64,000 nt of DNA from Candidatus Latescibacterota bacterium (GCA_963667175.2 CAXXXF010000013.1:64001-128000); one strand, 5' to 3'; counted from the first letter of the stretch, positions 1-45,356 are shown. Program-made: numbers and translations. The notes: generated by a model not told the origin, from the sequence alone.

Positions 1-346
1 TGCCGACATAGACGCCGATAGCTTCGGCGTCTACTGCCGCAGCCGGATCGAGCTCCGTCCAAACCGAGGGATCCTTCAGTGGTGGATCACTTCCGTCGGC
101 CTTTGCGAAGGTTCGCCCAGTTTCATTCGCCCAGTCGACCAGTAAGGCGAGTGCACTCCGAACCTTCTCATGCTGCGCTTCTGAACTTACGTTTTTAAGC
201 GCTGGAATGTCGGTCTCGAGCGCACCCGCCGATGTCCACCAGAAGCGAGCATCCGACCACGCTACGCCGACGCCTGCCATGACACCATAGCCTTTCAACA
301 TCGCGCCAAGCGAGGCCGTCGATACGCCCGGGAACTCGACCGTCAT
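1..346 (-). CDS. Type I-G large subunit Cas8g (Csx17/Cas8u1-like), 5' part only; runs off the window edge
   Basis: Hand translation from ATG at 346, which overlaps the cas3 stop (ATGA): MTVEFPGVSTASLGAMLKGYGVMAGVGVAWSDARFWW. This resembles the L.G....L..YLK..GV.....D.R.WW N-terminus of Csx17, and it sits directly after cas3. Confidence 0.7.
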   Translation of the reverse strand, partial: MTVEFPGVSTASLGAMLKGYGVMAGVGVAWSDARFWWTSAGALETDIPALKNVSSEAQHEKVRSALALLVDWANETGRTFAKADGSDPPLKDPSVWTELDPAAAVDAEAIGVYVG

Positions 347-2943
347 CGGCTGGCCCTCCAGTCGGCGACGCGGACCAGGGCCTCCAGGTACGCCAGAAAC
401 TGGGGTCCGTTCTCTTTGAGCAGCTTCACGGCCCGTCCCTGCCAACCGGGGTGGGCGAGCGAAGGGAGCAGCAGGTCGGGGTCGAGTTCGCACGCTTCCT
501 CACGTGCAACGAATGACATGGCTCGCGCAGGGATGCGGTCGTGGGGCTGGACACCGGCGACGTCGTCCAGCCGGTCATCGTTCCAGGGAGTGGGTGTCAT
601 CCGCACCTTCCCGTGGTGTGCCATGACGAGCCACGCGACCAGATCGTCGGCGTCCTTCTGGGCAAGGTACGCCAACGCGGACGCCACCTCGTGGCGGAAG
701 CGCTGGGTGTTGCGCCGCGGTCTGCGATGATCGTTGGACTTTGCATAGTAGACACCGTCTCGGGGGTCCGGGGGCTCATCGTGGCCTGCATCGCGAAGCA
801 TCTCCTGGAACGGGGAGAAGGGTCCGTCGGCGTCTTCCCGCTCGAGGGCCTTTCCGATATCGTGCCAACGGCCTGCCGTTGCCAGCACGTCCTCCAGATC
901 CGGAACAAGTGCCCCAGCGAGTTGACGCGCCGCCGACTCCGCCGTGGAGAGGTGCTGCGAAAGTTCCATCCAGCGGCGGGTGTGGCTGTGCGGGTCTTCC
1001 TGGCTGCCGGCCCACCCCTCCGTTCGATCATCGATCCCGCCGACCGTGTCGCCGTCGCTTTGTACCCATGAGCGATGTCCGTCAACGGTAGCCACCCAGC
1101 ACGACGGCCGGCTCTGTTCGGAGCCCACCCAACCGAGTGCATCGTCGTAGCCGCCGAGGGAGACGTCGAGCATCACCGTATCCCCGGGTCGAATGCCCGG
1201 GTCATCCAGCCGGATCTCTCTCCAGGCGCCGCTTTGACGACGAGAACGCTGCAACCCGAGTAACCAGCCCCGGCTGTCAGGACCCAGTTTGCGACCAAGC
1301 TCGCGCAGGGCAGCGATCGAGACCTTGCAGATCTCGTCAGGGTGCGGTGCTGGGGTCTCCTCCGGCTCGACGTTGTCGAGCACCCGCCAGAGCACCGCGA
1401 CATCGAGATCCCTTCGGTCGCCGCGCACGAACCGGGACACGTCGAGATGTCCACCCGACAAGTCGGGGTCCGTGTCGAAGAGGTCGTCGAGGTGGTGTTG
1501 TCGGAGCACGGGTCCTTCGACCGGGACAAGGTGCGGGTCGGCTTGGTCGACTTTCTTGATTGTCGAGATCGATGCGTCTCCACGAAGGCGATCCACTCGA
1601 ATCCATGCAGACTCGAGATCCGCCCACTTGTAAGGCAATGCGGCCGTGCTCCGGGCTTTCTCTTCGGCCTGCTCTCGGTCGGCTTTCTTCTTCGGCCAGC
1701 CTCCGGTCGGCACTTCTACTGGGGCCTCCAGGATATGGACGACGCCCTTTTTCCGTCCACGACGATTGAGTCGCCCGAGGCGCTGCACCAGGGATGACCA
1801 AGGACAGATTTCGCTCACCAGCATGTCCGCGTCGAGGTCGACACCGGCTTCGAGCACCTGAGTGCTGATCACGATTCGTCCCAGGTCCGGAGTGATCGTC
1901 CTGAGCCGGGCCATGGCCGCGGCGCGCTCACGGGGTCGAAAGCGGGAGTGCAAGAGCAGAAGCTCCGGGGGGCTGTCGTCGTGAGCGACAATTGCCTTGA
2001 CCCGCCGGAACAGCTCTTGGGCGCGCACAACACGATTGACCATCACCAGAACGAGTCGTCCGCCGGATGCGTGACACAGAAGTTGCTCGGCCAAAGACGT
2101 GTCCTCGACCGTGACCGCCGGACGTTCCACACGCTTCGATCCGTTGAGCACATCGGACATCGTCTTGCGGTCGGCTTCTCCGAGCCCGAGCACGGTGACG
2201 TCCCGTTTTCCGTGTTCCGGCGTCTGCATCCATAGGGGGGCCTGCTGCGTCCACCGTTGCCCTTCCGCCTGCCTGAGGGTCGCAGTGCCGATCGTCGCAC
2301 TCATCCAGAGACTTTCGCGTGGCAGGTGCTGCGGTGAATGTCGAAACTGATGGAGCTGAACGCTTGTGGTCCGGCCAGCCCCCATGAGTTGCACCTCGTC
2401 GAGGACCCAGAGTGCATCGACGTTCACCTGTCCGAATGCGATCGGCCAGTAGTACGGCTTCATCGCGTACCCGCGGTTCAGGCCGCGCGAGAGGAGCATG
2501 TCCTGGGTCCCCAAGAGCACGGCGTCGCGTTCCGGGTGACCCTCCCATTCCACGGCTTCCTCTCCTCCCATCAGCCTAAATACCGGAACGGCATCGCTGC
2601 ACCAGTTCGGCCGATACGGATCAGCCAGAGGCTGCGGGCGTTGAAGCCAGCCGAGGTTGGCGAACCATTCGATGATGTCGTCGTGCACTTGCTCGACGAG
2701 CGATCGCATCGGCAGGCAGTAGACCAGTCGTCGGGGTGTGCGTTGCCGGATGTCGCGGTCGGGGCACTCTCGCCGGCGCCATGCCCACGAGAGAACGGCC
2801 GCAGCGGTCTTCCCGCACCCTGTGGGCACGGCGAGGATGTCCGGCAGGTACCCGTATTCGGCAAGATTCTCCTGGTACTCATGTGGATCTGTCCGCAGGC
2901 CGGTCGCTGCTACGAAGAAGGAGCTGAAAGGTCGACCACTCAC
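343..2943 (-). CDS. cas3: Type I-G Cas3 helicase with C-terminal HD nuclease (copy 1)
   Basis: SF2 motifs PTGCGKT, LDEVQ, SAT and QRLGRLNR. C-terminal HD motifs WHDIGK, RHE, HHG and VRVAD give the I-G/I-U domain order. Confidence 0.93.
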   Translation of the reverse strand: MSGRPFSSFFVAATGLRTDPHEYQENLAEYGYLPDILAVPTGCGKTAAAVLSWAWRRRECPDRDIRQRTPRRLVYCLPMRSLVEQVHDDIIEWFANLGWLQRPQPLADPYRPNWCSDAVPVFRLMGGEEAVEWEGHPERDAVLLGTQDMLLSRGLNRGYAMKPYYWPIAFGQVNVDALWVLDEVQLMGAGRTTSVQLHQFRHSPQHLPRESLWMSATIGTATLRQAEGQRWTQQAPLWMQTPEHGKRDVTVLGLGEADRKTMSDVLNGSKRVERPAVTVEDTSLAEQLLCHASGGRLVLVMVNRVVRAQELFRRVKAIVAHDDSPPELLLLHSRFRPRERAAAMARLRTITPDLGRIVISTQVLEAGVDLDADMLVSEICPWSSLVQRLGRLNRRGRKKGVVHILEAPVEVPTGGWPKKKADREQAEEKARSTAALPYKWADLESAWIRVDRLRGDASISTIKKVDQADPHLVPVEGPVLRQHHLDDLFDTDPDLSGGHLDVSRFVRGDRRDLDVAVLWRVLDNVEPEETPAPHPDEICKVSIAALRELGRKLGPDSRGWLLGLQRSRRQSGAWREIRLDDPGIRPGDTVMLDVSLGGYDDALGWVGSEQSRPSCWVATVDGHRSWVQSDGDTVGGIDDRTEGWAGSQEDPHSHTRRWMELSQHLSTAESAARQLAGALVPDLEDVLATAGRWHDIGKALEREDADGPFSPFQEMLRDAGHDEPPDPRDGVYYAKSNDHRRPRRNTQRFRHEVASALAYLAQKDADDLVAWLVMAHHGKVRMTPTPWNDDRLDDVAGVQPHDRIPARAMSFVAREEACELDPDLLLPSLAHPGWQGRAVKLLKENGPQFLAYLEALVRVADWRASR

Positions 2944-3033: not shown

Positions 3034-5394
3034 TCAGTCACTTTCTTGTCCTCGCTCATCCATCGGACGGCACAGTCCATATCCCCGGAATCGTCCTGCC
3101 CCCAGAAGCACGGGACCTCGCGCCGGCTCGTCGAATACGATCACCGCGTGGTTGTGGCTCTGGCGTCCGCCGTGGTTCTTGCGCGCCATTTGCGGGAACT
3201 CCCTCGAATGAGGAACCCCTTCGACTAAGGAAACCGGGTGTAACAAAACCTCGCGCGGGCGCGGCAGACCGATGTGCCCGCACATGTCCTTCACGCTTTC
3301 GGCCGCCCGTTTCCACTTGTCCTTGCCATCGAAATGCCGGTTCAGGACCACCGGGGTCACGGTGGCCCAAATGCGGGATTCCCGTGTCCAGGTATTCGGA
3401 TTAAGGTTTTTCGGCGGGCGCTCGCGGGTTTCCAGTTCAATAGCGCACTCCAACCACGCGCCATCAAACAACCGATGTTCGCACGGCAGGCCGGTAGTGG
3501 AATCGTGAAGAAAACGGGCAAGGCATTTTCCGGCATCCTGATGATTCAGGTCCGCCGGCAGGGCTATGGCCAAACCCATGACCCGGCCATCTGCATATTC
3601 TGCACCGACGAATGGGAGAGGGGTCAGTGCCAGATGGGGATCAGCGGTAGGTCCGCCCTCCGGTCGATGGCCGCTGAACCACTCCGGCGGGGGTTGTTCG
3701 GGACACTCTTTCATCAATAAACCGCGCAGGGCCGCCGTGAGCTTGAGCGTCGCCGGTAGAGACACGCGCTTGCCTTTGATACCGAGGACAATGAGCTGAG
3801 GGTCGAAAACCGAGGCGGGGATTTCGGGGGCCTCGTCTTTCGGGGGTCTATCGTATCCCTGCCAACGGCCCGGTACCGGGCTCAGACTCACGGGTTTTCC
3901 GTTGGGAAACCGGTCTTCCGAACGCGTTTTCAACTCCTTGATGTATCGTCTCTGTTCGCGAGGATTTCGCCCGATGCACGGTCCACTTCCGCCTTGCTTT
4001 GCCGCAGCAAGTCGATTTCGGATGGTGTCAACATCCGGGGAGCGGGCGAGGTACCGAGCCTCTGACTGAGTAAGGCAATCGAAGGTGTGGCCGAAGTGGG
4101 CCTTCCACCACTTTTCGAAGTCTGATCCGTGCTCTTGTCGGAGTTCATGCAATTGCTCCTGTGAAGGGTTCAATTTGACAGAGTAGGGTTTGCCGGTCAG
4201 CGCAATGGCGCCAACGACTTTTCCGCCCTGCTTTTCTATCCAGCCGCGCAGATTCGCCAAAGTACCGCCCTGACCGATGAAGTCGTCCACCATCACGTAC
4301 TCTCGCCCTGCTTCGACAGGCCCATCGAAGCAAGCCTGACGCGCGAGCCGGCCATAGCCGTCGGCGCCCGTATGGGAGACGATATTCGTCTGTACGACAG
4401 CCGTCTCGCGGGGGATGCCGAGCCGCTCGTGCAGCAGTCTTGTCAAGGCAGCCGGAATGGCATTGAGGCCCTGGCTTTCCCAAGCATGTGCGCTGACCAA
4501 CACGGGATCGCCACTTTCACTTGCTTCGGAAGCCAGCAACTGCACCGCACGGATTCCACTCTCGTCGACCAGGCTGTCGACGAGGCGCGTCGCGGCTTCG
4601 GCGTCGCGCGCCGATTTTGCGCCAGGATATTCGGGGTGCTGTTTGACTTCGGATTCGCCGGCCAGTAGCACCACGTTCGCGAATGCCTTCCAAGGCGCCC
4701 TTGGCGGTGGCTTCATCTCCTTGAGGTCCGCGTCAGCTTGCTTAATCTCACTTTGAAGATCGTGGTAGGCGATTGTCGCTGCACGGTTCATGCGCGTTTC
4801 CAACATCTGCAGGCGCCCGGGGTTCGTTACGCGGAGTCGCTGACGGGCGACGCCCGTCGCTGGAATCCACGCAGGCGGCGGCGGCTTGGTCTCCAGCCAC
4901 ATTTGTACAAAAGAAGCCGAATGTCCCACGTGGGTAACTTTGGCGCCCAGCCGTTCCAAGGTGGCGCGATGTGTACCCAACTCGGCCTCCGGCCAAATCA
5001 GATACACCTTCGGGTTGTGAGGGATGGCAACCGGGAAACCACGGGGCTGGCGCGACCGATACTCCGGAAGCTGGGCCAGTCCGGCATCCTTCAGTTTGTT
5101 CAGATTTCCGATGGCAGGCAGCCGACGCTTTATACTCGCGTCGTTGACGGGCACATAGCTGACAACAGTAGCGCGACTGTGGGCATCCGACGCGGCAATC
5201 GCAGGTGGCGGCAAGGCTTCAAGCCAACGCAGTGCGTCGCCTTCGGCGGGGTCTTCGCCCGTCTCAAACCAGGCTGCTGCCAACGCCATGAATACCCGAT
5301 CGGGATGCGGCGGCCATTCGGCCTGTTCCTTTCGGGCCCCGTCCGCCGCTGCCATGGACCATCCATTCAGATAATGGATGCCAAGAGAGAACAT
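3034..5394 (-). CDS. csb2: Type I-G Csb2 (Cas5-Cas6 fusion) with an internal phosphoribosyltransferase-like domain
   Basis: N-terminal EWPPHPDRVFMALAA and YVPVND; C-terminal W.TVTPVVL and GPVLLGAGRFRGYGLC (Cas6 G-loop). An insert of about 250 aa contains VMVDDFIGQGGT. Confidence 0.9.
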   Translation of the reverse strand: MFSLGIHYLNGWSMAAADGARKEQAEWPPHPDRVFMALAAAWFETGEDPAEGDALRWLEALPPPAIAASDAHSRATVVSYVPVNDASIKRRLPAIGNLNKLKDAGLAQLPEYRSRQPRGFPVAIPHNPKVYLIWPEAELGTHRATLERLGAKVTHVGHSASFVQMWLETKPPPPAWIPATGVARQRLRVTNPGRLQMLETRMNRAATIAYHDLQSEIKQADADLKEMKPPPRAPWKAFANVVLLAGESEVKQHPEYPGAKSARDAEAATRLVDSLVDESGIRAVQLLASEASESGDPVLVSAHAWESQGLNAIPAALTRLLHERLGIPRETAVVQTNIVSHTGADGYGRLARQACFDGPVEAGREYVMVDDFIGQGGTLANLRGWIEKQGGKVVGAIALTGKPYSVKLNPSQEQLHELRQEHGSDFEKWWKAHFGHTFDCLTQSEARYLARSPDVDTIRNRLAAAKQGGSGPCIGRNPREQRRYIKELKTRSEDRFPNGKPVSLSPVPGRWQGYDRPPKDEAPEIPASVFDPQLIVLGIKGKRVSLPATLKLTAALRGLLMKECPEQPPPEWFSGHRPEGGPTADPHLALTPLPFVGAEYADGRVMGLAIALPADLNHQDAGKCLARFLHDSTTGLPCEHRLFDGAWLECAIELETRERPPKNLNPNTWTRESRIWATVTPVVLNRHFDGKDKWKRAAESVKDMCGHIGLPRPREVLLHPVSLVEGVPHSREFPQMARKNHGGRQSHNHAVIVFDEPARGPVLLGAGRFRGYGLCRPMDERGQESD
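3930..4148 (-). CDS. Nested alternative-frame small ORF (family A) inside the PRTase insert of csb2
   Basis: AGGAG lies 7 nt before the ATG. The protein (TPSIALLSQRLGTSPAPRMLTPSEIDLLRQSK) matches three free-standing ORFs at 18.4-21.0 kb. Confidence 0.55.
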   Translation of the reverse strand: MNSDKSTDQTSKSGGRPTSATPSIALLSQRLGTSPAPRMLTPSEIDLLRQSKAEVDRASGEILANRDDTSRS

Positions 5395-6668
5395 CAGCCG
5401 TCCCCTTCTCCCGAGGCGCTGGCCAATTCCTGGCTCCGCCGGACCAGTTCGACGAGGTCGGGCGATGGGGTCAGTTCAATTTCGCCCTCCCAGGGAAGGC
5501 CGACATCTCTGGCGGCCGCAGTCGCCTCGTTCAACAATTCAAGCGCGTCTTCGGGATCAAGTTCAAATTTCCGAGGAGATTCTCCGGGACGATCGAGCAT
5601 CTCCCACACAGGTTCTTGTTCAGCGAACAACTGGCAACGAGAGCGAAGGTCCGTATCGACTCTCGCCAAACTTCCGGCGGCCAGCCCCAGCGCGGCCAAC
5701 GCGGTGCGTGCGGCCAGATCAGTGTCGCGGTCAGAGTCCGCGGCGCCGTTGAGCGGAAAGCGGAGGCGACGTAGGACACTTAGTGACATTACCGTGGTCT
5801 GTACGGCTCTGGAGATTGTAAAACCGCCGATAATCCGCGGTACTCTGCGTTCCTGTCCATTTGAGTCAATAATAGTATCATAGACGATTTGTCCTCTTGG
5901 GTCTTTCGCATAAGCGTAATCGGGAGTGACATTTCCGTGGTTCGCTTCAGATGGCCTTCCTGTCTTGAGCTTCTTCCCGTCAGTCTTATTCAACGTCCAG
6001 TGGGACGCATCGTCGCTTTCAGATTTGCGCTCATATAGCGTGGCCGCATCGCGCATGATCTCCGCAGGATCGATTCGGCTGGACGTTTTCTTTCCGGCTA
6101 TCGCGTCATATCCTGCAATTTCCGAAACCACCGCACGCTGGAATTTACACCCCAGACCGCCACGAGGACCAGTCGAGTCCCACAGACCAAATATCAGTGC
6201 GGTCGGACACAAGCCAAATAGGCCGGTGGCATTCCGCACCTCCGCGGTGTCGAGTATTCGTCCCTTCTCCGACTTACGAAAAATCGTCCCGTTCAGAAGA
6301 CTGTCGCGGAATAGCGCATCCGCGACGCGATGGGGCGCCTCCAGGCTGGACACTGAGAACTCTTTGGGTAGTTCCTGATCGAAACGTGTTACCAGCAGAG
6401 GGAGCTGTACCGTTCCGGCACGGTGTGCCTCCAGCAGCGCCAACTCCATGCGGTTGGCCTGCGACTGCACCGAATCCAGGAGAACACATTGTCGAGTCTC
6501 CCTTGTCTTCGGGTCGATGCGCTCTTCGGTGGCGTATTTACCCCCTTCGTACGTCGGAGGAAACACTTTGTCGCCGGGGCCTCCTGCGGGCTGATAGTCG
6601 GTCACGCACCGAAACGCTGCGGCCGTCCCGGCGACCGCGGATTGCAAAGTCTGCAAATCAATCTTCAT
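5394..6668 (-). CDS. csb1: Type I-G Cas7 backbone Csb1 (copy 1)
   Basis: Motifs PAGGPGDKVFPPTY, LLDSVQSQANRME, APHRVAD, FG.WDSTG and DLRSRC. Confidence 0.93.
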   Translation of the reverse strand: MKIDLQTLQSAVAGTAAAFRCVTDYQPAGGPGDKVFPPTYEGGKYATEERIDPKTRETRQCVLLDSVQSQANRMELALLEAHRAGTVQLPLLVTRFDQELPKEFSVSSLEAPHRVADALFRDSLLNGTIFRKSEKGRILDTAEVRNATGLFGLCPTALIFGLWDSTGPRGGLGCKFQRAVVSEIAGYDAIAGKKTSSRIDPAEIMRDAATLYERKSESDDASHWTLNKTDGKKLKTGRPSEANHGNVTPDYAYAKDPRGQIVYDTIIDSNGQERRVPRIIGGFTISRAVQTTVMSLSVLRRLRFPLNGAADSDRDTDLAARTALAALGLAAGSLARVDTDLRSRCQLFAEQEPVWEMLDRPGESPRKFELDPEDALELLNEATAAARDVGLPWEGEIELTPSPDLVELVRRSQELASASGEGDG

Positions 6669-6715: not shown

Positions 6716-6853
6716 TCAGTTCTCAACTATAACATCGCCATTGACCAATTTCCCCGCAAGGACTTCGCTCACGATCTCGGTAGTTTCCCGTGCGGCCTTC
6801 CGCAGACGTTTTGGGTCGGCTATGTCGTAGGAGACGACGTAGGAATTGCGCAT
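6716..6853 (-). pseudogene. cas2: cas2 5' remnant fused in frame to the tail of a family A ORF
   Basis: Hand translation: MRNSYVVSYDIADPKRLRK-AARETTEIVSEVLAGKLVNGDVIVEN*. The first 19 aa are a typical Cas2 N-terminus (V.YDI.D.KRLRK). The next residues match LRKAAKETAEIVSEVLA of 20723-21004. Confidence 0.7.
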
Positions 6854-7956
6854 CCGGACAACCTTTCTGTCAGGCTCTGCTTCACCTCGCGGTTCGGATA
6901 TCCCAGATGGTACAGGGTCCTGACGCCCAGTTTTCTTTCCCCGGTAATCGTCAGGCAGCCGGTCTGGAACAGCAGAGCTTCGGTACCGATGTGGTCCACG
7001 TCAATGGTCGACAGCAAATCGCTGCTACCCAACATGTCGTCAAGTGCCAGAGAACTCACCTGGCGTTTGAACAGGGTTTCGACCAGGAACGAGGGCGTAC
7101 CGGTCTCGAACCAGTAGGCCTTGAACATGCGGCTGTCGAAGAGCAGTAGAATGTCGAAGGGGTTGTACACGTTCTCCTCGCCCAGCCAGTTGTAGCCGTT
7201 GTACCAGTCGCGGATCTCGTCCCGGTCGAGACCGGGCAACTCCGGCGCAAATATGGTGTCGATATCTTCGTCGGTGTAGCCGCAGACGGCGGAATAGCGC
7301 CTGTCCAGCGTGATGTCGATCAGGTTGTTGAGCCCGGAGAACGGTCCGGCCAGGGGAAACTTGTGGACCCCGGTGAGAAGGCTGAACCGGACGTCGGCGT
7401 CGCTGGACTTGATCGCCGCGTAGAAGCCGAACAGGTAGTCGCGGATGGCGCGGGCGGTTTCGGGGTTGTCGAGGTTGTCCAGGATCGGCTTTTCATATTC
7501 GTCCACGAGGACTGCCACCCGCCGGCCGGTACGCTCATGCAACTCCTCAAGCAGGCGCCCGAAGCGGAAGGACGGATCGTTGTCGCGAGGGGTTATCTCC
7601 GCCTGGTCTTCCAGGACCTGCAATTGCGCCGCCAGTTCCGTCCGCATGTCCTCGGGCCCCCGGTAGTTGCCGTAGTCGCCGCCGCTGAAGTCGAGGCGCA
7701 CCACCGGATGACGGACCGACCAGTCCCAGTGATCGTGGATGTGCAACCCCTCAAAGAGCGGTTCGTTGCCCTCGAACAGCTCCTTGCAGGTGTCGAGGAA
7801 GAGGCTCTTGCCGAAGCGCCGCGGGCGGGAGAGGAAGTAGTGACTGCCGCTGTCGAGCAGTCGCCGTACGTACCGGGTCTTGTCGACGTAGTAGCAGTCT
7901 TCCTCGCGGATCTCGCGAAAGGTCTGGATGCCATTGGGGAGTTTGCGTCTGGTCAT
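6820..7956 (-). pseudogene. AAA-ATPase-like / PD-(D/E)XK nuclease paralogue, C-terminally truncated (nuclease domain lost)
   Basis: Begins MTRRKLPNGIQTF, has Walker A SRPRRFGKS and VDEYEKP. Homology to 7983-9533 stops after YPNREVKQSL. Confidence 0.8.
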
Positions 7957-7982
7957 GGGAGGTCTCCGGCGCGGGGGCGCGC

Positions 7983-9533
7983 TCAGGCGCGCTCCACCTC
8001 GAAAGCGGCCAGGTTGCGGGCGTCCCTGCTGAACTCGACGGCAATCAGGTAGACCGGCTGGCCGAGGCCGCGGTACTTGTCGGCGTAGCGCCTCTCCTTC
8101 AACTGGGCCATGGCGGCGCCCTCCGGCGCCAGCTCGACCACCTTGAACTCGAAGAGATAGACGTTGTCGTTGAAGCGGACCGCCATGTCGAGGCGGCCGT
8201 GGCTGCTGCTGTCCTCCACGGTGACGTCCGATTCCAGGGCAGCGAAGTACGAGTAGAACACGCTGGCGTAGTAGCCCTCGTAGTTGGCGATGTCGTTGCT
8301 GGTGTACCACTCGTAGGGGATACTGGCGAAGAAAGCACGGAACAGGGTCTCGAGCCCGGCGAAGTCGTTGGCCAGCAGTAGGTCGTAGAGCCGGGCCCTG
8401 TGCTCGGCCTGCTGCGGCGGGCTTCCCGTCAAGGAACTCAGAAGGCTTCGGTTCAGGCTCTTCCGAACCTCCCGGTTCGGGTAGCCGAGACGATAGAACA
8501 TCTCCCCGCCACGCGGCTCGGCGCGGGCGATGGTGAGATAGCCGGTCTGGAACAGCAGCGCCTCGGTGGCGATGTCCTCCACGTCGAACTTCGACAACAG
8601 ATCGTCGGTGCCCACCATGTCTTCCAGGGACAGCGAGCGGACGCGGCGCTGGAACAGGGTTTCGACCAGGAACGAGGGCGTACCGGTCTCGAACCAGTAG
8701 GCCTTGAACATGCGGCTGTCGAAGAGCAGTAGAATGTCGAAGGGGTTGTAGACGTTCTCCTCGCCCAGCCAGTTGTAGCCGTTGTACCAGTCGCGGATCT
8801 CGTCCCGGTCGAGGCCGGGCAACTCCGGCGTGAATACGGTGTCGATATCTTCGTCGGTGTAGCCGCAAAGGGCGGAATAGCGCGGGTCCAGCGTGATGTC
8901 CTTGAGGTTGTTTAGGCCGGAGAACAGGCTCACCCTGGAAAACTTGCTCACGCCGGTGAGGAAGCTGAAACGGATGTCGGCGTCGCTGTCCTTGATCGTC
9001 GCGTAGAGGCCGCGCAGGAAGTCGCGGTTGGCCAGGGCGACCTCCGGCGTCTCAAGGGCATCCAGGATCGGCTTGTCGTACTCGTCGATCAACACCGCGG
9101 CGCGCTGACCGGTGCGCTCGTGCAACTCCTTCGTCAAGCGGCGGAAGCGCGCCGAGGCGGTGTCGTCATCGCGCGGAGTGACTTCCGCTTCCTCCTCCAG
9201 GGCGGTCAGTTGAGTACCCACTTCCTTCCGTAAGTCGTCCGGCTCCAGGTAGGTACCGCTGCTGAAGCTCAGGCGCAGGACGGGGTGACGAACGGACCAG
9301 TCCCAGTGATCGTGGATGTCCAGCCCCGTGAACAGGGGCTCGTTGCCCTCGAACAGCTCCTTGCACGTGTCGAGAAAGAGGCTCTTGCCAAAGCGCCTCG
9401 GACGCGACAGGAAATAGTGCTTGCCCTCGTCGAGAGGCCGACGGATGTAGCCGGTCTTGTCGACGTAGTAGCAGTCCTCCTCGCGGATCTCGCGGAAGGT
9501 CTGAATGCCTATGGGGAGTCTGCGTCGGGTCAT
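7983..9533 (-). CDS. AAA-ATPase-like domain plus C-terminal PD-(D/E)XK nuclease protein (intact)
   Basis: LPIGIQTF, RPRRFGKS, IDEYDKP, YNGY, YNPF, YWFETGTP and C-terminal GRLDM...FEFK...QLKERRY. Confidence 0.9.
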   Translation of the reverse strand: MTRRRLPIGIQTFREIREEDCYYVDKTGYIRRPLDEGKHYFLSRPRRFGKSLFLDTCKELFEGNEPLFTGLDIHDHWDWSVRHPVLRLSFSSGTYLEPDDLRKEVGTQLTALEEEAEVTPRDDDTASARFRRLTKELHERTGQRAAVLIDEYDKPILDALETPEVALANRDFLRGLYATIKDSDADIRFSFLTGVSKFSRVSLFSGLNNLKDITLDPRYSALCGYTDEDIDTVFTPELPGLDRDEIRDWYNGYNWLGEENVYNPFDILLLFDSRMFKAYWFETGTPSFLVETLFQRRVRSLSLEDMVGTDDLLSKFDVEDIATEALLFQTGYLTIARAEPRGGEMFYRLGYPNREVRKSLNRSLLSSLTGSPPQQAEHRARLYDLLLANDFAGLETLFRAFFASIPYEWYTSNDIANYEGYYASVFYSYFAALESDVTVEDSSSHGRLDMAVRFNDNVYLFEFKVVELAPEGAAMAQLKERRYADKYRGLGQPVYLIAVEFSRDARNLAAFEVERA

Positions 9534-10863: not shown

Positions 10864-17501
<6,638 letters not shown>

Positions 17502-17600: not shown

Positions 17601-17792
17601 TTACCTGCGAAGCTTGAAATTCTTACTTTGCGGGGGTTCGTTGTCGATCTCAATGCCTTGGTCTCTCAATCGGTCAATGCCGCCGCGTACCTGTTTGCAG
17701 TCTAAGTTCACGGCTGTCGCCATTTCCAGCACGGAAGCGCCGTTTTTCCGGCGCTTCAGATATTCGTACACGCGAGATTGAATAGACTCCAT
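17601..17792 (-). CDS. 63-aa winged-HTH-like protein, directly upstream of cas operon 2
   Basis: GGGAG RBS. VYEYLK...ASVLEMATAVNLDCKQVRGGIDRLRDQGIEI fits a wHTH pattern. Confidence 0.65.
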   Translation of the reverse strand: MESIQSRVYEYLKRRKNGASVLEMATAVNLDCKQVRGGIDRLRDQGIEIDNEPPQSKNFKLRR

Positions 17793-17845
17793 GATGTTCT
17801 CCCTTCAAAATCGCCAACGTCCATTACGCGCGTCGTCTTTTTTTG

Positions 17846-17874
17846 TTGCTTTCGCATCAGAAGTTGTATATCTT
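17846..17874 (+). promoter_or_regulatory. Putative sigma70 promoter for the CRISPR-like RNA
   Basis: TTGCTT-N17-TATCTT pointing at the mini-array. Confidence 0.4.
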
Positions 17875-17885
17875 ACGAGAGGATT

Positions 17886-17908
17886 TATAAAACGAAACTT
17901 TCTATGAA
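17886..17908 (-). promoter_or_regulatory. Self-target (PAM TTC plus protospacer) of the mini-array spacer, at the predicted transcription start
   Basis: Minus strand reads TTC-ATAGAAAGTTTCGTTTTATA; the spacer is ATAGAGAGTTTTGTTTTTTA. 17/20 identical, with mismatches at positions 6, 12 and 18. Confidence 0.75.
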
Positions 17909-17912
17909 ATAG

Positions 17913-17941
17913 AATATAACAACCCCTGAAGTCATTGTCAA
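17913..17941 (-). promoter_or_regulatory. Near-consensus sigma70 promoter upstream of the wHTH gene and cas operon 2
   Basis: Minus strand TTGACA-N17-TATATT with an extended -10 TGn. Confidence 0.75.
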
Positions 17942-17957
17942 GTGTTTTCTCTCTTTA

Positions 17958-18041
17958 GGCCTCATTGAAGGATAGAGAGTTTTGTTTTTTAGCATTTTGT
18001 ATGTGTCACTTCCGGGCCGCAAGGCCCGGCCTCATTGCAGT
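17958..18041 (+). CRISPR. Single-spacer mini-array / CRISPR-like RNA (partial repeat, spacer, degenerate full repeat)
   Basis: GGCCTCATTGAAGG (17958-17971), a spacer of about 33 nt (17972-18004), then GTCACTTCCGGGCCGCAAGGCCCGGCCTCATTGCAGT with a 7-bp stem CCGGGCC/GGCCCGG. The 3' end GGCCTCATTG(A/C)AG is typical of I-G repeats. Confidence 0.8.
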
Positions 18042-18093: not shown

Positions 18094-18321
18094 CTATCTT
18101 CTTCGTTCTTTCTTTTCTGTACCAACTCGATTTCGCATGGCGTCAAATTCGGTGGAGCGGGTGAGTCGTTCCCGAATCCAGGCCTCGTCTACCGGCTCGC
18201 CCTCCATCGCCATCGAGTTCGCCACGTGACGGGGAATCGCCTTCAGATGCCGACACCGGCGCTCCTCCGCCGGGAGGTTGCGCCATTGTTCGATGGCCTC
18301 CCTCCAATGCATGTCGGGCAT
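18094..18321 (-). CDS. Small protein with a VbhA-like Fic-inhibitory motif
   Basis: AGGAGG precedes the ATG at 18321. HVANSMAMEGEPVD fits (S/T)xxxE(G/N). Confidence 0.5.
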   Translation of the reverse strand: MPDMHWREAIEQWRNLPAEERRCRHLKAIPRHVANSMAMEGEPVDEAWIRERLTRSTEFDAMRNRVGTEKKERRR

Positions 18322-18397
18322 CGACGTCCTCCTGTTCATGTCTAAACGTCGATAATATCCGCGTAACATTCGCAATAGATTCGGGTCTATTTTCAGC

Positions 18398-18640
18398 CTA
18401 TCCACTGGTTTCATCCTGATCACCAACCGCTCTCTTCCTCGCAGAGACTTCGCGCAAGACCTGGGCCATCTCCTTCTTGCTCCTCCGCAGCAGGTCGATC
18501 TCGCACGGCGTCAGATTCCTGTGAGAGGGCGAGACGCCCACTATCTGATTGAGTTTGGCCGCCGAAGGGGTGGTTCGAGCAGGCTTGTTCCGGCTCCTTG
18601 AACGCTGCTCCGCGTCGTTGTCTTTGGCCATTTTCTTCAT
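18398..18640 (-). CDS. Family A small protein, free-standing copy 1
   Basis: RTTPSAAKLNQIVGVSPSHRNLTPCEIDLLRRSKKE; paralogous to 19069-19377, 20723-21004 and 3930-4148. Confidence 0.65.
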   Translation of the reverse strand: MKKMAKDNDAEQRSRSRNKPARTTPSAAKLNQIVGVSPSHRNLTPCEIDLLRRSKKEMAQVLREVSARKRAVGDQDETSG

Positions 18641-18874: not shown

Positions 18875-19072
18875 TTAGAGTTTGAATAGAATCAGCGTGC
18901 CAAGCGTGATAAACATGGTAAACTGAATGCCGATCATCCAGCGGAAACCCTGATCGACGCGAATTTCGAGGGCAGCGATGCGCTGGCTAAGCTGCTCAAC
19001 GGTACCCTCCAGGCGCGCAAGGCGTGCCTCGAAATCGGCGCTGGCGGGTGCTTCGGGCGTTGCGGTGTTCAT
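18875..19072 (-). CDS. Family B small coiled-coil protein with C-terminal transmembrane helix, copy 1
   Basis: FEARLARLEGTVEQL followed by hydrophobic WMIGIQFTMFITLGTLILFKL; close paralogue of 21028-21213. Confidence 0.7.
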   Translation of the reverse strand: MNTATPEAPASADFEARLARLEGTVEQLSQRIAALEIRVDQGFRWMIGIQFTMFITLGTLILFKL

Positions 19073-19377
19073 GATGGTTTCCCTTCTTTGTGTGTTGGTT
19101 GCGACCCCTGGCCGGATTCTTTGCGCTGTTCGTCTGCTTCCATCGTTGCCTGCGTTTCATCCTGATCTCGAGCCGCTTTCTTCCTCGCAGAGACTTCGCG
19201 CAAGACCTGGGCCATCTCCTTCTTGCTTTTCCGCAGCAGGTCGATCTCGTACGGTGTCAGATTCCGGGGCGCGGACGAGACGCCTACTATCTGATTGAGC
19301 TTGGCGGCTGACGGGGTGGTTCGAGCAGGCCTGTCCCCACGCTCTGAGGGCTGCTGCACTTCGTTGTGCTCAGCCAT
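19069..19377 (-). CDS. Family A small protein, free-standing copy 2
   Basis: RTTPSAAKLNQIVGVSSAPRNLTPYEIDLLRKSKKE; its stop overlaps the start of family B (ATGA). Confidence 0.65.
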   Translation of the reverse strand: MAEHNEVQQPSERGDRPARTTPSAAKLNQIVGVSSAPRNLTPYEIDLLRKSKKEMAQVLREVSARKKAARDQDETQATMEADEQRKESGQGSQPTHKEGKPS

Positions 19378-19713: not shown

Positions 19714-19935
19714 TCAAAGACCTGCAATGGGTATGGACGTTGTTGCTTCAGCCTCTCCGTGGACCATCAGTCGCACCTTCTCGGTCGTCTCGCGACGAAA
19801 CGCCTGTTCGCCGCATCGGACGCATACCACAGCCGGAATGCTCCCGACCAGGGCATAACGCCCATCAACGCGAAACACCTCGTCGACCAACTCCTCACGG
19901 CTTTCCTGGGAATGGCAGACCGGGCAAGTAAACAT
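19714..19935 (-). CDS. YgiT-type zinc finger protein (MqsA-like N-domain)
   Basis: GGAGGT RBS; MFTCPVCH...IPAVVCVRCGE. Confidence 0.75.
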   Translation of the reverse strand: MFTCPVCHSQESREELVDEVFRVDGRYALVGSIPAVVCVRCGEQAFRRETTEKVRLMVHGEAEATTSIPIAGL

Positions 19936-20029
19936 GCTCACCTCCTTACTGGAGTATTCGATCCATACATAGTGGCGACCCTCCAGATCGGCAACCTCAA
20001 GAGGCACGTTCACGAAATCACTCCAGGAA

Positions 20030-20374
20030 TCAGACAGAACGAGCAATACGTTCGATCGCTCTGGCCAACTCAGGGAGGTCGCGTTCGACGACGCTCCAAA
20101 CCGCATCAAGATCAACCTGTAAATAACCATGCACAAGCACGTTGCGAAACCCTGCAATGGCACGCCAGGGAACGTCTCTCTCGGTCTCTTTTACTGCGTC
20201 GCTCAGGCGCTGCGTTGACTCCGAGAGCGTCTGCAGATTTCGCACGACGGCATCCTGCACCATGCGTGAACCGTAGAACGAAGCTCGCCTGCTGCCGGTG
20301 TATTCCCGAATGCGTTCAATGCACTCGCGTATGTGTTCCAGCAATACTCTATCCGACTGCGCATCGGGTTTCAT
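20030..20374 (-). CDS. HEPN (DUF86) RNase toxin of an MNT-HEPN TA pair
   Basis: QDAVVRNL, WRAIAGFRNVLVHGY (RxxxxH) and VW.VVE.DLP.L. Confidence 0.88.
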   Translation of the reverse strand: MKPDAQSDRVLLEHIRECIERIREYTGSRRASFYGSRMVQDAVVRNLQTLSESTQRLSDAVKETERDVPWRAIAGFRNVLVHGYLQVDLDAVWSVVERDLPELARAIERIARSV

Positions 20375-20655
20375 AACGGCTGCGCCTCGTTCAGAACGCG
20401 CTCGCGGAGGGCCGGATGAAGACTCTTTTCAGTGACGACTTCTACGCGGCGTTGCAGAAGGTCCCGCACGTCCATCAACAGCGCGCCGAGCGCGAGGCCC
20501 GTTCTATCGGGCGGGAGCGACACCAGCAGATCGACGTCACCGGAATCATCGGCATCGCCCCTCGCCATAGACCCGAACACACGTACGTCGGTAATACCGT
20601 GCCGTTCAGCAAGGGCGAGAATCCCGGCGCGGTGTTGTTCGATGATTGAGTGCAT
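20371..20655 (-). CDS. Minimal nucleotidyltransferase (MNT) antitoxin
   Basis: VFGSMARGDADDSGDVDLLV. Likely start is MHSIIEQH, and the gene overlaps the HEPN start. Confidence 0.88.
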   Translation of the reverse strand: MHSIIEQHRAGILALAERHGITDVRVFGSMARGDADDSGDVDLLVSLPPDRTGLALGALLMDVRDLLQRRVEVVTEKSLHPALRERVLNEAQPL

Positions 20656-20722
20656 AACTACCGTATCCCTACTCGCCGTCCTTCCGGCGCTTGATGAGCA
20701 GTGTACGCTGATGGTCCGAACC

Positions 20723-21004
20723 TTAGCGGGAATCCTCGCGCTGTTCGTCTGCTTCCATCGTTGCTCGCGTTTCATCCTGATCTCGAGCCGCCTCTTTTTC
20801 CTTCGCCAGGACTTCGCTCACGATCTCCGCAGTTTCCTTCGCGGCCTTCCGAAGCAGCTCGATCTCGTACGGCGTCAGATTCCGGCAGGCGGGCGAGTCG
20901 CCCAATATCTGTTTGAGCTTGGCCGCCGATGGGGTGGTTCGAGCAGGCCTGTCCCCACGCTCTGAACGCTGCTCCGCGTCGTTGCCCTTAGCCATTTTCT
21001 TCAT
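20723..21004 (-). CDS. Family A small protein, free-standing copy 3
   Basis: RTTPSAAKLKQILGDSPACRNLTPYEIELLRKAAKE. Confidence 0.65.
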   Translation of the reverse strand: MKKMAKGNDAEQRSERGDRPARTTPSAAKLKQILGDSPACRNLTPYEIELLRKAAKETAEIVSEVLAKEKEAARDQDETRATMEADEQREDSR

Positions 21005-21027: not shown

Positions 21028-21213
21028 TTAGAGTTTGAAGAGAATGAGCGTGCCAAGCGTGATGAAGCTGGTAAAGTGGAGGCCGATAAGCCAGCGTTGC
21101 CCGCGCTCCAGGTTGGCAAGGCGCTGGTTCATCTGCTCTACCGTGCCCTCGAGGCGTGCAAGGCGTGCCTCGAAGTCGGCGCTGGCGGGTGCTTCGGGCG
21201 TCGCGGTGTTCAT
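21028..21213 (-). CDS. Family B small coiled-coil/TM protein, copy 2
   Basis: First 27 aa identical to 18875-19072; hydrophobic C-terminus. Confidence 0.7.
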   Translation of the reverse strand: MNTATPEAPASADFEARLARLEGTVEQMNQRLANLERGQRWLIGLHFTSFITLGTLILFKL

Positions 21214-21226
21214 GGTGATTCCCCCT

Positions 21227-22247
21227 CTATGTGTGATGTTCGCGATCCTTAGCGGGAACCTTCGCGCTGTTCGCCATCTGCCGAGACGCGTCTTTCACCA
21301 TGTAGCGCAGCAGGCTCCGATTCAGGCTCTGCCGCACTTCCCGGTTGGGATAGCCCAGACGGTAGTGAGGTTCGCCGCCGAGATCTTCCTCGTCTGTTAT
21401 TGTGAGATACCCGGCCTGAAACAAAAGCGCCTCGGTGGCCACGTCGTCCACGTCAAACGTCGACAGCAGATCGCTGCTGCCCAGCATTTCGTCCGGAGCC
21501 AGAGAACTCACCTGGCGCTTGAACAGCGCTTCGACCAGAAACGTCGGCGTGCCTGTCTCAAACCAATAGGCGGCGAACTCACGGTTGCGAAACAGCAGCA
21601 GTATATCGAAGGGGTTATATACCCTGGTATCGCCCCGCCAACTGTAGCCGTTGTACCAGTAGCGGATCTCCTCCCGGTTGAGGCCGGACAACTCCGGCGC
21701 GAACACGGTGTCGATATCCTCGTCGGTGTACCCGCAGATGGACGAATGGCGCGCGTCCAGGGTGATGTCGACCAGATTGTTGAGGCCGAAGAACAGGCTG
21801 ACTCTGGAGAACTTGCTTACCCCGGTAATAAAGCTGAAGCGGATGTCGGTGTCGCTGTCCTTGACGACTGCATAGAGGCCCCGCAGATAGTTGTGGTTGG
21901 CGCGGGCGACGTCCGGCGTCTCCAGGGCGTCCAGGATCGGCTTGTCATACTCGTCGATCAGCACTGCGACGGGCCGACCGGTCTTGCCGTGCAGCACTTC
22001 CAGGAGACGCCGTAACCGTTCGGGACCGGTGACGTACTCCGAGGATACGTTCGCCTTTCGTTCCACGGCGTCCAATTGGGCCATCAGGTTCGTATGCAAG
22101 TGGCCCGGCTCCTTGAAGTGCCCGCTCCCGAAGCTCAGACGCAGGACGGGACAACGTATGGACCAGTTCCAGTAACCGTGGATGTCCAGCCCCTGAAACA
22201 GAGATTCGTTGCCCTCGAACATTTCCTTGAGCGTGTCGAGAAACAGG
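21227..22247 (-). pseudogene. AAA-ATPase/PD-(D/E)XK paralogue truncated at both ends
   Basis: Homology starts at LFLDTLKEMFEG (Walker A missing) and stops at RQMANSA, so the nuclease domain is absent. Confidence 0.8.
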
Positions 22248-44534: not shown

Positions 44535-45356
44535 ATGAATACGATTCATACCATAGAAGACCTGATACAACTGCTGGACGAAAAGCCCGAATGGGCCGAC
44601 GCCATGCGCGCTCGGCTGCTAACGCGTGAACTGATCGAACTGCCTGAAAAGTTCACGAAATTCGTCGCCGAATTAGACAGATTCGTCGAAGTCGCGAACA
44701 GACGATTCGATGCCCTGGAAGAGCGGATAGACAAGCTGTTCACGCAGACAGACAAGCGGTTCACTCAAATAGACAATCGGTTCACGCAGATAGACAATCG
44801 GTTCACGCAGATAGACAATCGGTTCACGCAGATAGACAATCGGTTCACGCAGATAGACAATCGGTTCACGCAGATAGACAATCGGTTCACGCAGATAGAC
44901 AATCGGTTCAACAGACTTGAAGCTGACGTGGGGCAGATCAAAGGCATTCTCGCCAGAAATGCCGCCCTAGAAGATGCCGCTCTCATTGCCAGAGAGATGG
45001 ATTTGCGGCGATTGAAGACACTCTCTCAGGAAGATCTTTGGGACCTCGTCGACGCCGCCGATACATCGGATATTCCCCCAAGCGATCTCAGGAGTTTCCG
45101 AAGGGCGGATCTGGTTATGGAAGCCATAGACCCTGCGGAAGAGACCTGCTACGTCGCCGTGGAAATTTCATTCACGGTCAACGGCAGGGACACCGCCAGG
45201 GCCATTCGCAACGCCGGATTCCTGACGCGGTTTACGCAGCGACGCGCTCACGCGGCAGTCGCCGGCTTATATCGAGACCATCGCATTCGGGACATCATTG
45301 AATCCGGGGACGTGTTCTGGCATGAAATGGATCCCGGCATTCTGGAATCAGAGTGA
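44535..45356 (+). CDS. Coiled-coil heptad-repeat protein with a possible C-terminal PD-(D/E)XK-like domain
   Basis: (FTQIDNR)x7; C-terminal ADLVM...VAVEIS...D..RA. Confidence 0.7.
   Translation: MNTIHTIEDLIQLLDEKPEWADAMRARLLTRELIELPEKFTKFVAELDRFVEVANRRFDALEERIDKLFTQTDKRFTQIDNRFTQIDNRFTQIDNRFTQIDNRFTQIDNRFTQIDNRFTQIDNRFNRLEADVGQIKGILARNAALEDAALIAREMDLRRLKTLSQEDLWDLVDAADTSDIPPSDLRSFRRADLVMEAIDPAEETCYVAVEISFTVNGRDTARAIRNAGFLTRFTQRRAHAAVAGLYRDHRIRDIIESGDVFWHEMDPGILESE
44739..44906 (+). repeat. 21-bp coding tandem repeat, about 8 units
   Basis: TTCACGCAGATAGACAATCGG units, most identical. Confidence 0.95.

Follow-up and report, generated by a model that had tools for sequence, protein, structure and literature searches.

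Introduction

The closest described relatives of the system considered here are the KfrC proteins of IncP-1 (RK2 type) and IncU (RA3 type) plasmids, which carry an N-terminal type I phosphoribosyltransferase (PRT) domain. According to PMC8124265, cells overproducing the PRT domain of KfrC from plasmid RA3 are retarded in growth, the DDT141-143AAA change abolishes this retardation, and kfrC1-249 was not stably clonable; neither the word "overlapping" nor the words "reading frame" occur in that paper. A phosphoribosyltransferase (PRTase) homologous to this domain is encoded in a stretch of 64,000 nucleotides from Candidatus Latescibacterota bacterium (GCA_963667175.2 CAXXXF010000013.1:64001-128000), which as a whole is referred to as the window in the following. 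There, the PRTase is inserted in frame into Csb2, a protein of the type I-G CRISPR-Cas system, and the last third of the PRTase-homologous part is overlapped, in the +1 frame, by a small gene, here called A, which is very probably real and translated and which probably encodes a partner of the enzyme.

PRTase folds serve as toxic effectors in defence, as can be judged from ShosT and Retron-Eco11. In ShosTA, a PRTase-fold toxin disturbing purine metabolism is accompanied by a protective, unstable second protein (PMC11961720), and the likeness to the present locus lies in the pairing of such a toxin with a protective protein; ShosA, however, is a DNA-binding protein of its own, by which the damage is counteracted (type IV), unlike a binder encoded within the toxin gene, and no ShosT or ShosA match was obtained with PADLOC among four PRTases and two A proteins at E values up to 0.01. 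In type III-A retrons (for example, Retron-Eco11), a PRTase-like effector is restrained by a nucleic-acid-based sensing complex. Only one weak PADLOC match (PRTase_III-A, E 0.0042) was obtained, with one of the four PRTases, and the carrier is Cascade, through Csb2, in the present case and a reverse transcriptase with multicopy single-stranded DNA in the retrons. No reverse transcriptase was found among the scanned neighbours of the PRTases, non-coding RNA not having been searched for.

As for genes nested in the same strand and out of frame, comS within srfAB is a bacterial example. Small out-of-frame proteins are also represented by gndA within gnd and by the synthetic entanglement of relE within ilvA (PMC11230408 and 10.1101/2023.02.27.530340). 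Unlike these three cases, the overlap of A is conserved over many phyla, in protein clusters numbering more than a thousand, A has free paralogues, and the two products are predicted by structural modelling to bind each other. A second protein arising from within a cas gene through internal initiation is known in Cas11, which is produced from an internal start inside cas8 in types I-B, I-C, and I-D (cited in PMC9638904), and for type I-G no small subunit within Cas8g is reported in that paper. The likeness to A stops at the mode of initiation: Cas11 is in frame and represents the C-terminal part of Cas8, whereas A lies in the +1 frame and has no residues in common with Csb2.

Results and Discussion

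The csb2 gene and its phosphoribosyltransferase insert

Csb2 is the Cas5/Cas6 fusion of type I-G CRISPR-Cas. The open reading frame (ORF) of 786 amino acids (aa) that harbors gene A was recognised as Csb2 by Pfam (Cas_GSU0054, PF09609, E 1.6e-19), by NCBIfam (TIGR02165, E 4e-87, in two stretches), and by PADLOC (Cas56g, E 1.2e-122). Its residues 2-204 and 526-786 align to residues 9-255 and 280-559, respectively, of a plain Csb2 of 564 aa encoded in the same window, and since both flanks align in this way, the insert can be placed at about residues 205-525 (Table 1).

Free-standing PRTases of about 245 aa can be aligned over their whole length with the PRTase part of the insert. The signature of the phosphoribosyl pyrophosphate (PRPP)-binding loop, that is, a hydrophobic strand, two acidic residues, and xGGT, was found in the form VMVDDFIGQGGT, which is conserved in the PRTase family; in the window protein the loop is VDDFIGQGGT, at residues 369-378 of Csb2::PRTase. 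The Pfam PF00156 match is below the cut-off in the window protein (0.0026) and above it in the stand-alone PRTase L105 (1e-6, 28.6 bits, the cut-off being 26.3), and a PDB profile search matched the same loop in adenine PRTases (2.6e-4). The AlphaFold2 model of the PRTase domain has a predicted local distance difference test (pLDDT) score of 80.6, and the stretch overlapped by A folds into three confident helices, which argues that both frames encode ordered structure. As judged from these comparisons, the insert contains a complete KfrC-type type I phosphoribosyltransferase, the fold of which may serve in catalysis or else as a ligand sensor.

The fusion is not restricted to the window: 358 clusters contain the PRTase part within proteins of 432-1376 aa, with PF09609 in nearly all of the 120 listed, and stand-alone PRTases account for 1315 clusters. 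Public records label these clusters only "phosphoribosyltransferase" or "Csb2". Our literature searches retrieved no paper on an enzyme domain placed within the Cas5/Cas6 protein of type I-G loci, and the type I-G structure paper (PMC9638904) does not mention such an insert in Csb2; an enzyme domain in this position is an unreported CRISPR architecture. Some PRTases of the family (L128, P0286, P0316, P0319) bear an N-terminal MqsA/XRE domain, consisting of a zinc ribbon and a helix-turn-helix, and in L128 the overlapping A ORF is still present.

Gene A and the evidence that its frame is selected

The earlier note on this DNA had pointed to a 72-aa ORF in a shifted frame, with AGGAG seven nucleotides (nt) before its ATG, and this arrangement was found exactly as described; the gene spans main-frame residues 416-488, and the AGGAG is made of the main-frame codons CAG GAG (Gln-Glu). 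Family A comprises 205 representatives at E ≤0.001. Searches with A in Pfam, NCBIfam, and PADLOC did not retrieve any family, and a PDB profile search gave no E value lower than 1.8; A is a protein family without a name in any source found. In its AlphaFold2 model (121 sequences), residues 1-17 are disordered and are followed by a helix (22-31) and a long helix (42-71), the mean pLDDT being 74.9, with 97 reached over residues 41-60; no DNA-binding fold is recognisable in the model. A consensus scan, weakly informative in itself, revealed no internal promoter or terminator near A.

Two samples of loci were analysed. The first was ascertained through A: an alignment search gave 463 proteins at E ≤0.01, many of them of exactly 72 aa, and a genomic search based on A gave 166 relatives, the best 80 loci of which were kept and pooled with loci from related genomes and with the four copies of the window, yielding 93 distinct copies of A. 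Thirty-two copies lie within fusions of Csb2 and PRTase about 800 aa long, 35 are free, and three lie in apparently broken fusions; each of the remaining 23 overlaps a shorter ORF of the PRTase frame at its 3' end, in most cases a stand-alone PRTase. Since the first loci had been found through A itself, a second, unbiased sample was drawn by scanning metagenome contigs with main-frame residues 301-416, located upstream of the overlap, and by keeping the best 80 of 431 relatives; open frames were counted in the 68 non-identical loci of this sample with at least 200 nt downstream.

In all 68 loci, frame A was open for at least 50 codons from its ATG, compared with an expectation of 14.9/68 obtained by re-drawing the synonymous codons of the PRTase from each gene's own usage. 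The ATG lies at codon 1 in 14 loci and at codon 7 in the other 54. Over 44 codons, frame A was stop-free in 68/68 loci and the PRTase frame in 66/68, with corresponding counts of 0/68 for the other sense frame and of 0, 22, and 1/68 for the antisense frames.

Furthermore, the synonymous difference rate, taken as the share of identical residues encoded by different codons, was calculated in 12-codon windows over 63 complete stand-alone genes (pairwise amino-acid identity 0.45-1.0, median 0.57). The rate was 0.58-0.72 in each well-populated upstream window and dropped to 0.33, 0.20, 0.34, 0.17, and 0.23 from the first codon of A onward. In the 32 Csb2-PRTase fusions it was 0.21 across residues 416-488 versus 0.51 elsewhere, with an amino-acid identity of 0.72 within this stretch versus 0.70 outside it.

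The start signals of A are likewise reflected in the codon choice of the main frame. In the 54 stand-alone loci with the ATG at codon 7, the histidine codon from which the ATG takes its AT is CAT in 52 out of 52 cases (gene-wide usage: CAT 296, CAC 190), the two other loci having TAT at this site. Three positions upstream, the arginine codon is AGG in 36 out of 53 cases, with AAA in one of the 54 loci, and the gene-wide share of AGG among arginine codons is 140/972; this choice yields TGAGG, i.e., a frame-A stop together with a Shine-Dalgarno (SD)-like GAGG. An SD-like core 4-11 nt before the ATG was detected in 32/32 fusions and in 36/54 of these stand-alone loci, and AGGAG with a 7-nt spacer in 29/32 fusions. 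An explanation of the conservation of A at the RNA level was considered and rejected, the fold z-score being -0.58 with respect to shuffled sequences and no Rfam match being obtained.

The features by which an overprinted gene is recognised, namely an ORF beyond expectation, synonymous suppression in the host frame, and conserved start signals, were thus all observed. As far as codon-level patterns can tell, the overlap is dual-coding, both readings being kept by selection, and gene A is very probably a real translated gene with its own start, overprinted on the PRTase. The proposed reality of the nested gene, and with it the dual coding of csb2, is in this sense borne out by the open frame, the synonymous drop, the codon bias at the ATG and SD sites, and the selection on the free copies described below.

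Free-standing copies of gene A

The same note had listed three ORFs sharing a motif with A and having no PRTase gene attached. All three are present (Table 1), are 46, 46, and 44% identical to nested A, and share with it 26 invariant columns, which include the motif originally noticed; none has a PRTase gene attached, and in the PRTase frame they encode sequences with just 31-41% identity to the conserved 32-residue stretch of the family. When the window's own genome was searched in all six frames, the query being the free copy of 102 aa, exactly four places were returned (E 7.9e-61, 8.5e-34, and 1.5e-29, and 1.9e-11 for the nested copy), and according to these E values the likeness among the four copies is far beyond chance.

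Fourteen free copies in which the PRTase frame is degraded gave a ratio of the proportions of nonsynonymous and synonymous differences (pN/pS) of 0.49 for frame A and of 1.43 for the PRTase frame, calculated over the 44-codon core by the Nei-Gojobori method, which is crude in this context; the two-frame check of selection suggested earlier thus indicates constraint on the former frame and not on the latter. Stops in the PRTase frame occur as well, three in L053 and two in L057.

In the tree of A copies, built on 44 columns and weakly resolved, 17 copies from several phyla, all of them free, group in one clade (support 97/84), which embeds the three of the window and those of G009, a genome of the same genus. 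In this old clade the ORF, the start, and the motif are kept, and the PRTase frame has diverged until 31-47% identity is left, or has acquired stops. Other free copies are interspersed among PRTase-linked ones, the starred branches forcing at least 10 changes of the label "free", and some free copies are recent, such as L046, which retains 88% of the PRTase-frame motif and has the PRTase-linked L051 as its partner in the tree. The supported all-free clade, together with the scattered and recent free copies, suggests that A escaped repeatedly and that one escape is old. Intact free copies number three in the window and seven in G009. The possibility that the free copies are only decayed 3' fragments of PRTase genes was rejected: they derive from PRTase 3' ends and yet have been maintained as genes, and the three of the window are, on comparative grounds, escaped paralogues under frame-A selection. 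They may also bind the Csb2-borne enzyme.

In the locus L008 (genome G015), the first 44 residues of A are fused by a deletion to a cas3 lacking its first ~70 codons, in a single open frame, which looks like a decaying locus. Long frame-A open stretches extending upstream of A in L055, L067, L069, L072, L076, and L084 were examined as possible fusions and discarded, their translations looking non-coding and A having its own methionine.

Predicted interaction between A and the phosphoribosyltransferase

The complex of the PRTase domain (Csb2 residues 236-500) with A was predicted with a score of 0.78, versus 0.02 for the best of three controls; this score is reached by 58/80 solved complexes and by 2/110 mismatched pairs, counts that are approximate since the alignments were our own. 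At least 77% of the contacts are common to the runs, and the partner has a pLDDT of at least 68. On the PRTase chain the modelled interface comprises residues 28-38, 66-88, 94-105, and 117-123 and takes in the invariant motifs AHAxExxGxNAIP and VQTNxVxHTGA, and on A it comprises residues 20-66, including the family invariants L27, G32, S34, R38, L40, E44, L48, R49, and E54. The suggestion of a small partner coupled to the PRTase is in line with this model, according to which A probably binds a conserved face of the enzyme.

That A acts as an inhibitor of the PRTase is a more tentative proposal, and an antitoxin role is plausible. In P0427 an MqsA antitoxin domain is followed by A in one frame, with the PRTase missing, and in P0489 A is joined to DUF2442; both fusions fit an antitoxin-like module. 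Moreover, the disordered tail of A would suit a labile antitoxin.

The most likely scenario is the following. PRTase and A form an old module of two genes on one stretch of DNA, which occurs as a free-standing PRTase of about 245 aa with its last ~45 codons overlapping A. The module was recruited to type I-G CRISPR-Cas loci in a mainly marine lineage rich in metagenome-assembled genomes, and in the window it was inserted as a whole, in frame, between the Cas5-like and the Cas6-like halves of Csb2, so that A became fully nested. A would restrain a growth-inhibiting PRTase in the manner of an antitoxin, and the shared DNA would tie the inheritance and the expression of the two together. The enzyme inside Csb2 would be tethered to Cascade; its release on target binding is a matter of speculation.

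Comparison with KfrC-type plasmid loci

Compared by tblastn, stand-alone L105 shares 36-44% identity with the N-terminal domain of KfrC and with other plasmid "phosphoribosyltransferases", the alignments covering about 95% of L105; its matches amount to 168 plasmid records and three phage records. The KfrC match includes the C-terminal helical stretch that is overlapped by A; the C-terminus of the PRTase frame also weakly matches the XopC family profile. KfrC differs in having an extra alpha-helical C-terminal domain and in belonging to a kfrA-kfrB-kfrC stability operon, whereas the PRTase considered here stands alone or within Csb2: that of the window continues into Csb2 with neither kfrA nor kfrB alongside, and the stand-alone PRTases end about 50 codons into the overlap, without the C-terminal domain of KfrC.

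In 7/7 KfrC-type plasmid loci picked from the 168 records (L182-L188), the +1 frame runs without a stop over 60-92 codons, versus 1.1 loci expected, and in an RA3-like plasmid a +1 ORF of 53 aa lies across KfrC codons ~207-260. Of the A motif, the +1 frame of KfrC retains no more than the C-terminal half (..LT.SEI.SLR..), and the start codon is not conserved. KfrC-type plasmids may thus hide an A-like gene, which we regard as a lead and not as a result.

Genomic context and association with CRISPR-Cas

The window embeds two type I-G interference operons (6668-343 and 17501-10864), only the first of which carries the PRTase; the features discussed are collected in Table 1.

Table 1. Features of the window related to gene A, its host gene, and the two type I-G operons (coordinates counted from the first letter of the window).
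Feature	Coordinates	Strand	Remarks
Gene A, nested copy	3930..4148	-	72 aa, +1 frame of csb2, inside main-frame codons 416-488
SD-like AGGAG	4156..4160	-	7 nt (4155-4149) before the ATG of A (4148-4146)
csb2::PRTase	3034..5394	-	type I-G Cas5/Cas6 fusion, 786 aa, interrupted in frame by the PRTase module
Insert between Cas5-like and Cas6-like halves of Csb2	3820..4782	-	residues ~205-525, in frame, ~320 aa
PRTase-homologous part of the insert	3955..4689	-	residues ~236-480, from alignment to free-standing PRTases
csb1/cas7g, operon 1	5394..6668	-	directly upstream of csb2::PRTase; NCBIfam TIGR02570, E 2.4e-21
cas3g, operon 1	343..2943	-	directly downstream of csb2::PRTase; NCBIfam TIGR02621, E 2.2e-187
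Second type I-G operon, without PRTase	10864..17501	-	csb1, plain csb2, cas3g, Cas3-extension family gene
csb1, operon 2	16248..17501	-	
Plain csb2, operon 2	14554..16248	-	
cas3g, operon 2	11772..14561	-	
Cas3-extension family gene, operon 2	10864..11775	-	
Free A paralogue 1	18398..18640	-	80 aa; PRTase frame degraded; in all-free clade
Free A paralogue 2	19069..19377	-	102 aa; PRTase frame degraded; in all-free clade
Free A paralogue 3	20723..21004	-	93 aa; PRTase frame degraded; in all-free clade

The three free copies lie just upstream of the second operon, amid toxin-antitoxin-like genes, and G009 shows the same layout of free copies and a second type I-G operon. Outside the window's genus, each of the seven members of the all-free clade with downstream DNA is followed, on the same strand and within ~620 nt at most, by a type I-G cas gene, which is cas3 in L058, L072, L078, L082, and G057, csb1 in L034, and the C-terminal half of csb2 in L088. 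In addition, stand-alone PRTase+A modules adjoin cas3 or csb2 in six loci (L045, L051, L067, L073, L086, L098). In the unbiased metagenome sample, cas genes were found in only 4/80 PRTase+A loci, the other 76 having none in the DNA retrieved, which suggests that the module is older than its association with CRISPR; the neighbourhoods of the other loci vary and include restriction-modification genes, MazE/PIN, WYL, and IS200. Within the part of the window examined for it (1-22300), no Cas8g/Csx17 gene was recognised, repeat searches detected no CRISPR array anywhere in the window, and the ORF at 2-493 (minus strand), downstream of cas3g, has no family match.

Several small genes surround the free copies. 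An ORF of 110 aa (18094-18426, minus strand) overlaps the end of free copy 1 and contains ..NSMAMEGEPV.., without any Pfam match; we take this segment to resemble the [ST]xxxE[GN] Fic-inhibiting motif of VbhA-type antitoxins. A similar segment stands beside A, or in frame with it, in G009 (L178:11061-11423), in L086 (in frame before A), and in P0385. Two paralogous ORFs of 61-65 aa (18875-19072 and 21028-21213, both on the minus strand; MNTATPEAPASADFEARLARLEG...LILFKL) each adjoin a free copy and have a coiled-coil-like start and a hydrophobic end; they lie within the repeats D2 and D4 and show only a weak Pfam match to DUF7310. Between free copies 3 and 2, the region 19714-20775 (minus strand) encodes an MNT-type nucleotidyltransferase (PF01909, 8.6e-13) and a HepT ribonuclease (PF01934, 5.8e-28), a toxin-antitoxin cluster which also holds an ORF weakly matching the MqsA zinc ribbon. 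After an AT-rich stretch (~17800-18000), and immediately upstream of the second csb1, lies an ORF of 63 aa (17601-17792, minus strand), with only a weak DUF6432 match, which may be a small regulator of the second operon.

Both cas regions are flanked by three minus-strand paralogues starting with MTRRRLPIGIQTFREIREEDCYYVDKT.. (7983-9533, the C-terminal part of 6820-8868, and 21227-22222), which also occur in G009; the 516-aa copy, the only one scanned, has no NCBIfam family, and these proteins resemble the AAA-ATPase/PD-(D/E)XK "DUF1703" proteins. Further away (44726-44910), a 21-nt tandem repeat of 8.8 copies, 95% matching, could encode a 7-residue protein repeat.

Alternative explanations

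On the whole, we favour, with fair rather than high confidence, the explanation that A is a genuine gene on a KfrC-type PRTase and its cognate partner, most probably an antitoxin-type inhibitor. The conservation of the nested frame might instead be a by-product of a conserved PRTase C-terminus combined with constraint on the nucleotides, A being untranslated, and the main-frame peptide over the overlap is indeed extremely conserved, with 16 invariant columns between H187 and R226 and confident helices. Protein conservation, however, leaves synonymous sites free, and these are suppressed three-fold from the first codon of A; frame A is open in every unbiased locus, far beyond expectation, its ATG and SD are fixed through codon choice, no signal of RNA structure was found, and the frame survives in free genes where the PRTase frame decays, all of which makes this possibility very improbable. 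We consider it still less probable that A is produced by a +1 ribosomal frameshift as an alternative C-terminus of the PRTase. The two frames do differ by +1, and one database protein (P0420) runs from the PRTase frame into frame A, but this is a single record which may reflect an indel, the free copies have their own starts, and in 54/68 unbiased loci a frame-A stop lies three codons before the conserved ATG, accompanied in 36 of them by an SD-like motif. Least probable of all is that the free copies are merely decaying 3' fragments of PRTase genes and that only the nested copy, or none, matters: recent leftovers such as L046 and the remnant of A joined to a truncated cas3 in G015 would agree with it, but the old free clade of 17 rows from several phyla keeps ORF, start, and motif despite the drift of its PRTase frame, the contrast in pN/pS between the two frames opposes decay, and so does the number of intact copies in the window and in G009.

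A more serious rival, although a less probable one than the inhibitor, is that A is translated and acts positively, as a required subunit of the PRTase, as a link of the PRTase or of Cascade to Cas3, or as a regulator of type I-G cas genes; it is suggested by the free copies of A without a PRTase and by the DNA-binding domains on some PRTases. It draws on the seven out of seven clade members preceding a type I-G cas gene, on the stand-alone modules directly beside cas3 or csb2, on the finding that 6/9 such genomes lack this PRTase by search, and on the conservation, in the free copies too, of the residues of A at the modelled interface. The 76 unbiased loci without a cas gene, conversely, indicate that the ancestral partner of A is the PRTase and not Cas, A has neither a recognisable DNA-binding fold nor a family match, and the toxicity of the KfrC PRT domain implies that something must restrain the PRTase. 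Several points nevertheless weigh against an antitoxin-type inhibitor, or against the strength of the case for gene A itself. Free A heads type I-G cas operons in six genomes where the PRTase was not found with the query used (G009, 99% complete; G057, 93% complete; and those of L072, L078, L082, and L088), although in the genome of L058 the PRTase is present 12 kb from the free copy; this implies that A also has a role without the enzyme in cis and, in turn, that titration of the Csb2-borne enzyme, the role earlier proposed for the free copies, could not be their whole role. The modelled interface excludes the PRPP loop, the complex was folded from unpaired alignments, and the N-terminal MqsA/XRE DNA-binding domain on some PRTases fits a regulator or a sensor as well. 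Moreover, the 32 fusions in the synonymous comparison were found through A and thus form a biased sample, the counts overstate independence since the sequences are mutually related, and a pN/pS of 0.49 is only moderate and comes from a method not designed for overlapping frames.

Conclusions

To our knowledge, few long same-strand out-of-frame overlaps in bacteria are firmly supported by evolutionary evidence, and standard annotation misses them; the overlap between A and the PRTase is a well-supported case, conserved across many phyla. It also offers a possible explanation for the toxicity of the PRT domain of RA3 KfrC and for the difficulty of cloning it. If A is the inhibitor of the enzyme, the module would represent a natural counterpart of the genes that synthetic biologists entangle deliberately.

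A wider picture, which we regard as unlikely in its entirety, is that of a natural toxin-antitoxin entanglement extending from the kfrC plasmids (RK2, RA3) to type I-G systems, in which the Csb2-tethered PRTase would be a target-triggered arrest effector and free A a regulator of Cas genes. If such an entanglement is true, neither gene could be lost or freely mutated without affecting the other, and the arrangement would have gone unnoticed in the kfrC of RK2 and RA3. A would then control a growth-arrest effector tethered to Cascade, and the free A genes heading cas3 operons would represent a new small Cas-associated regulator.

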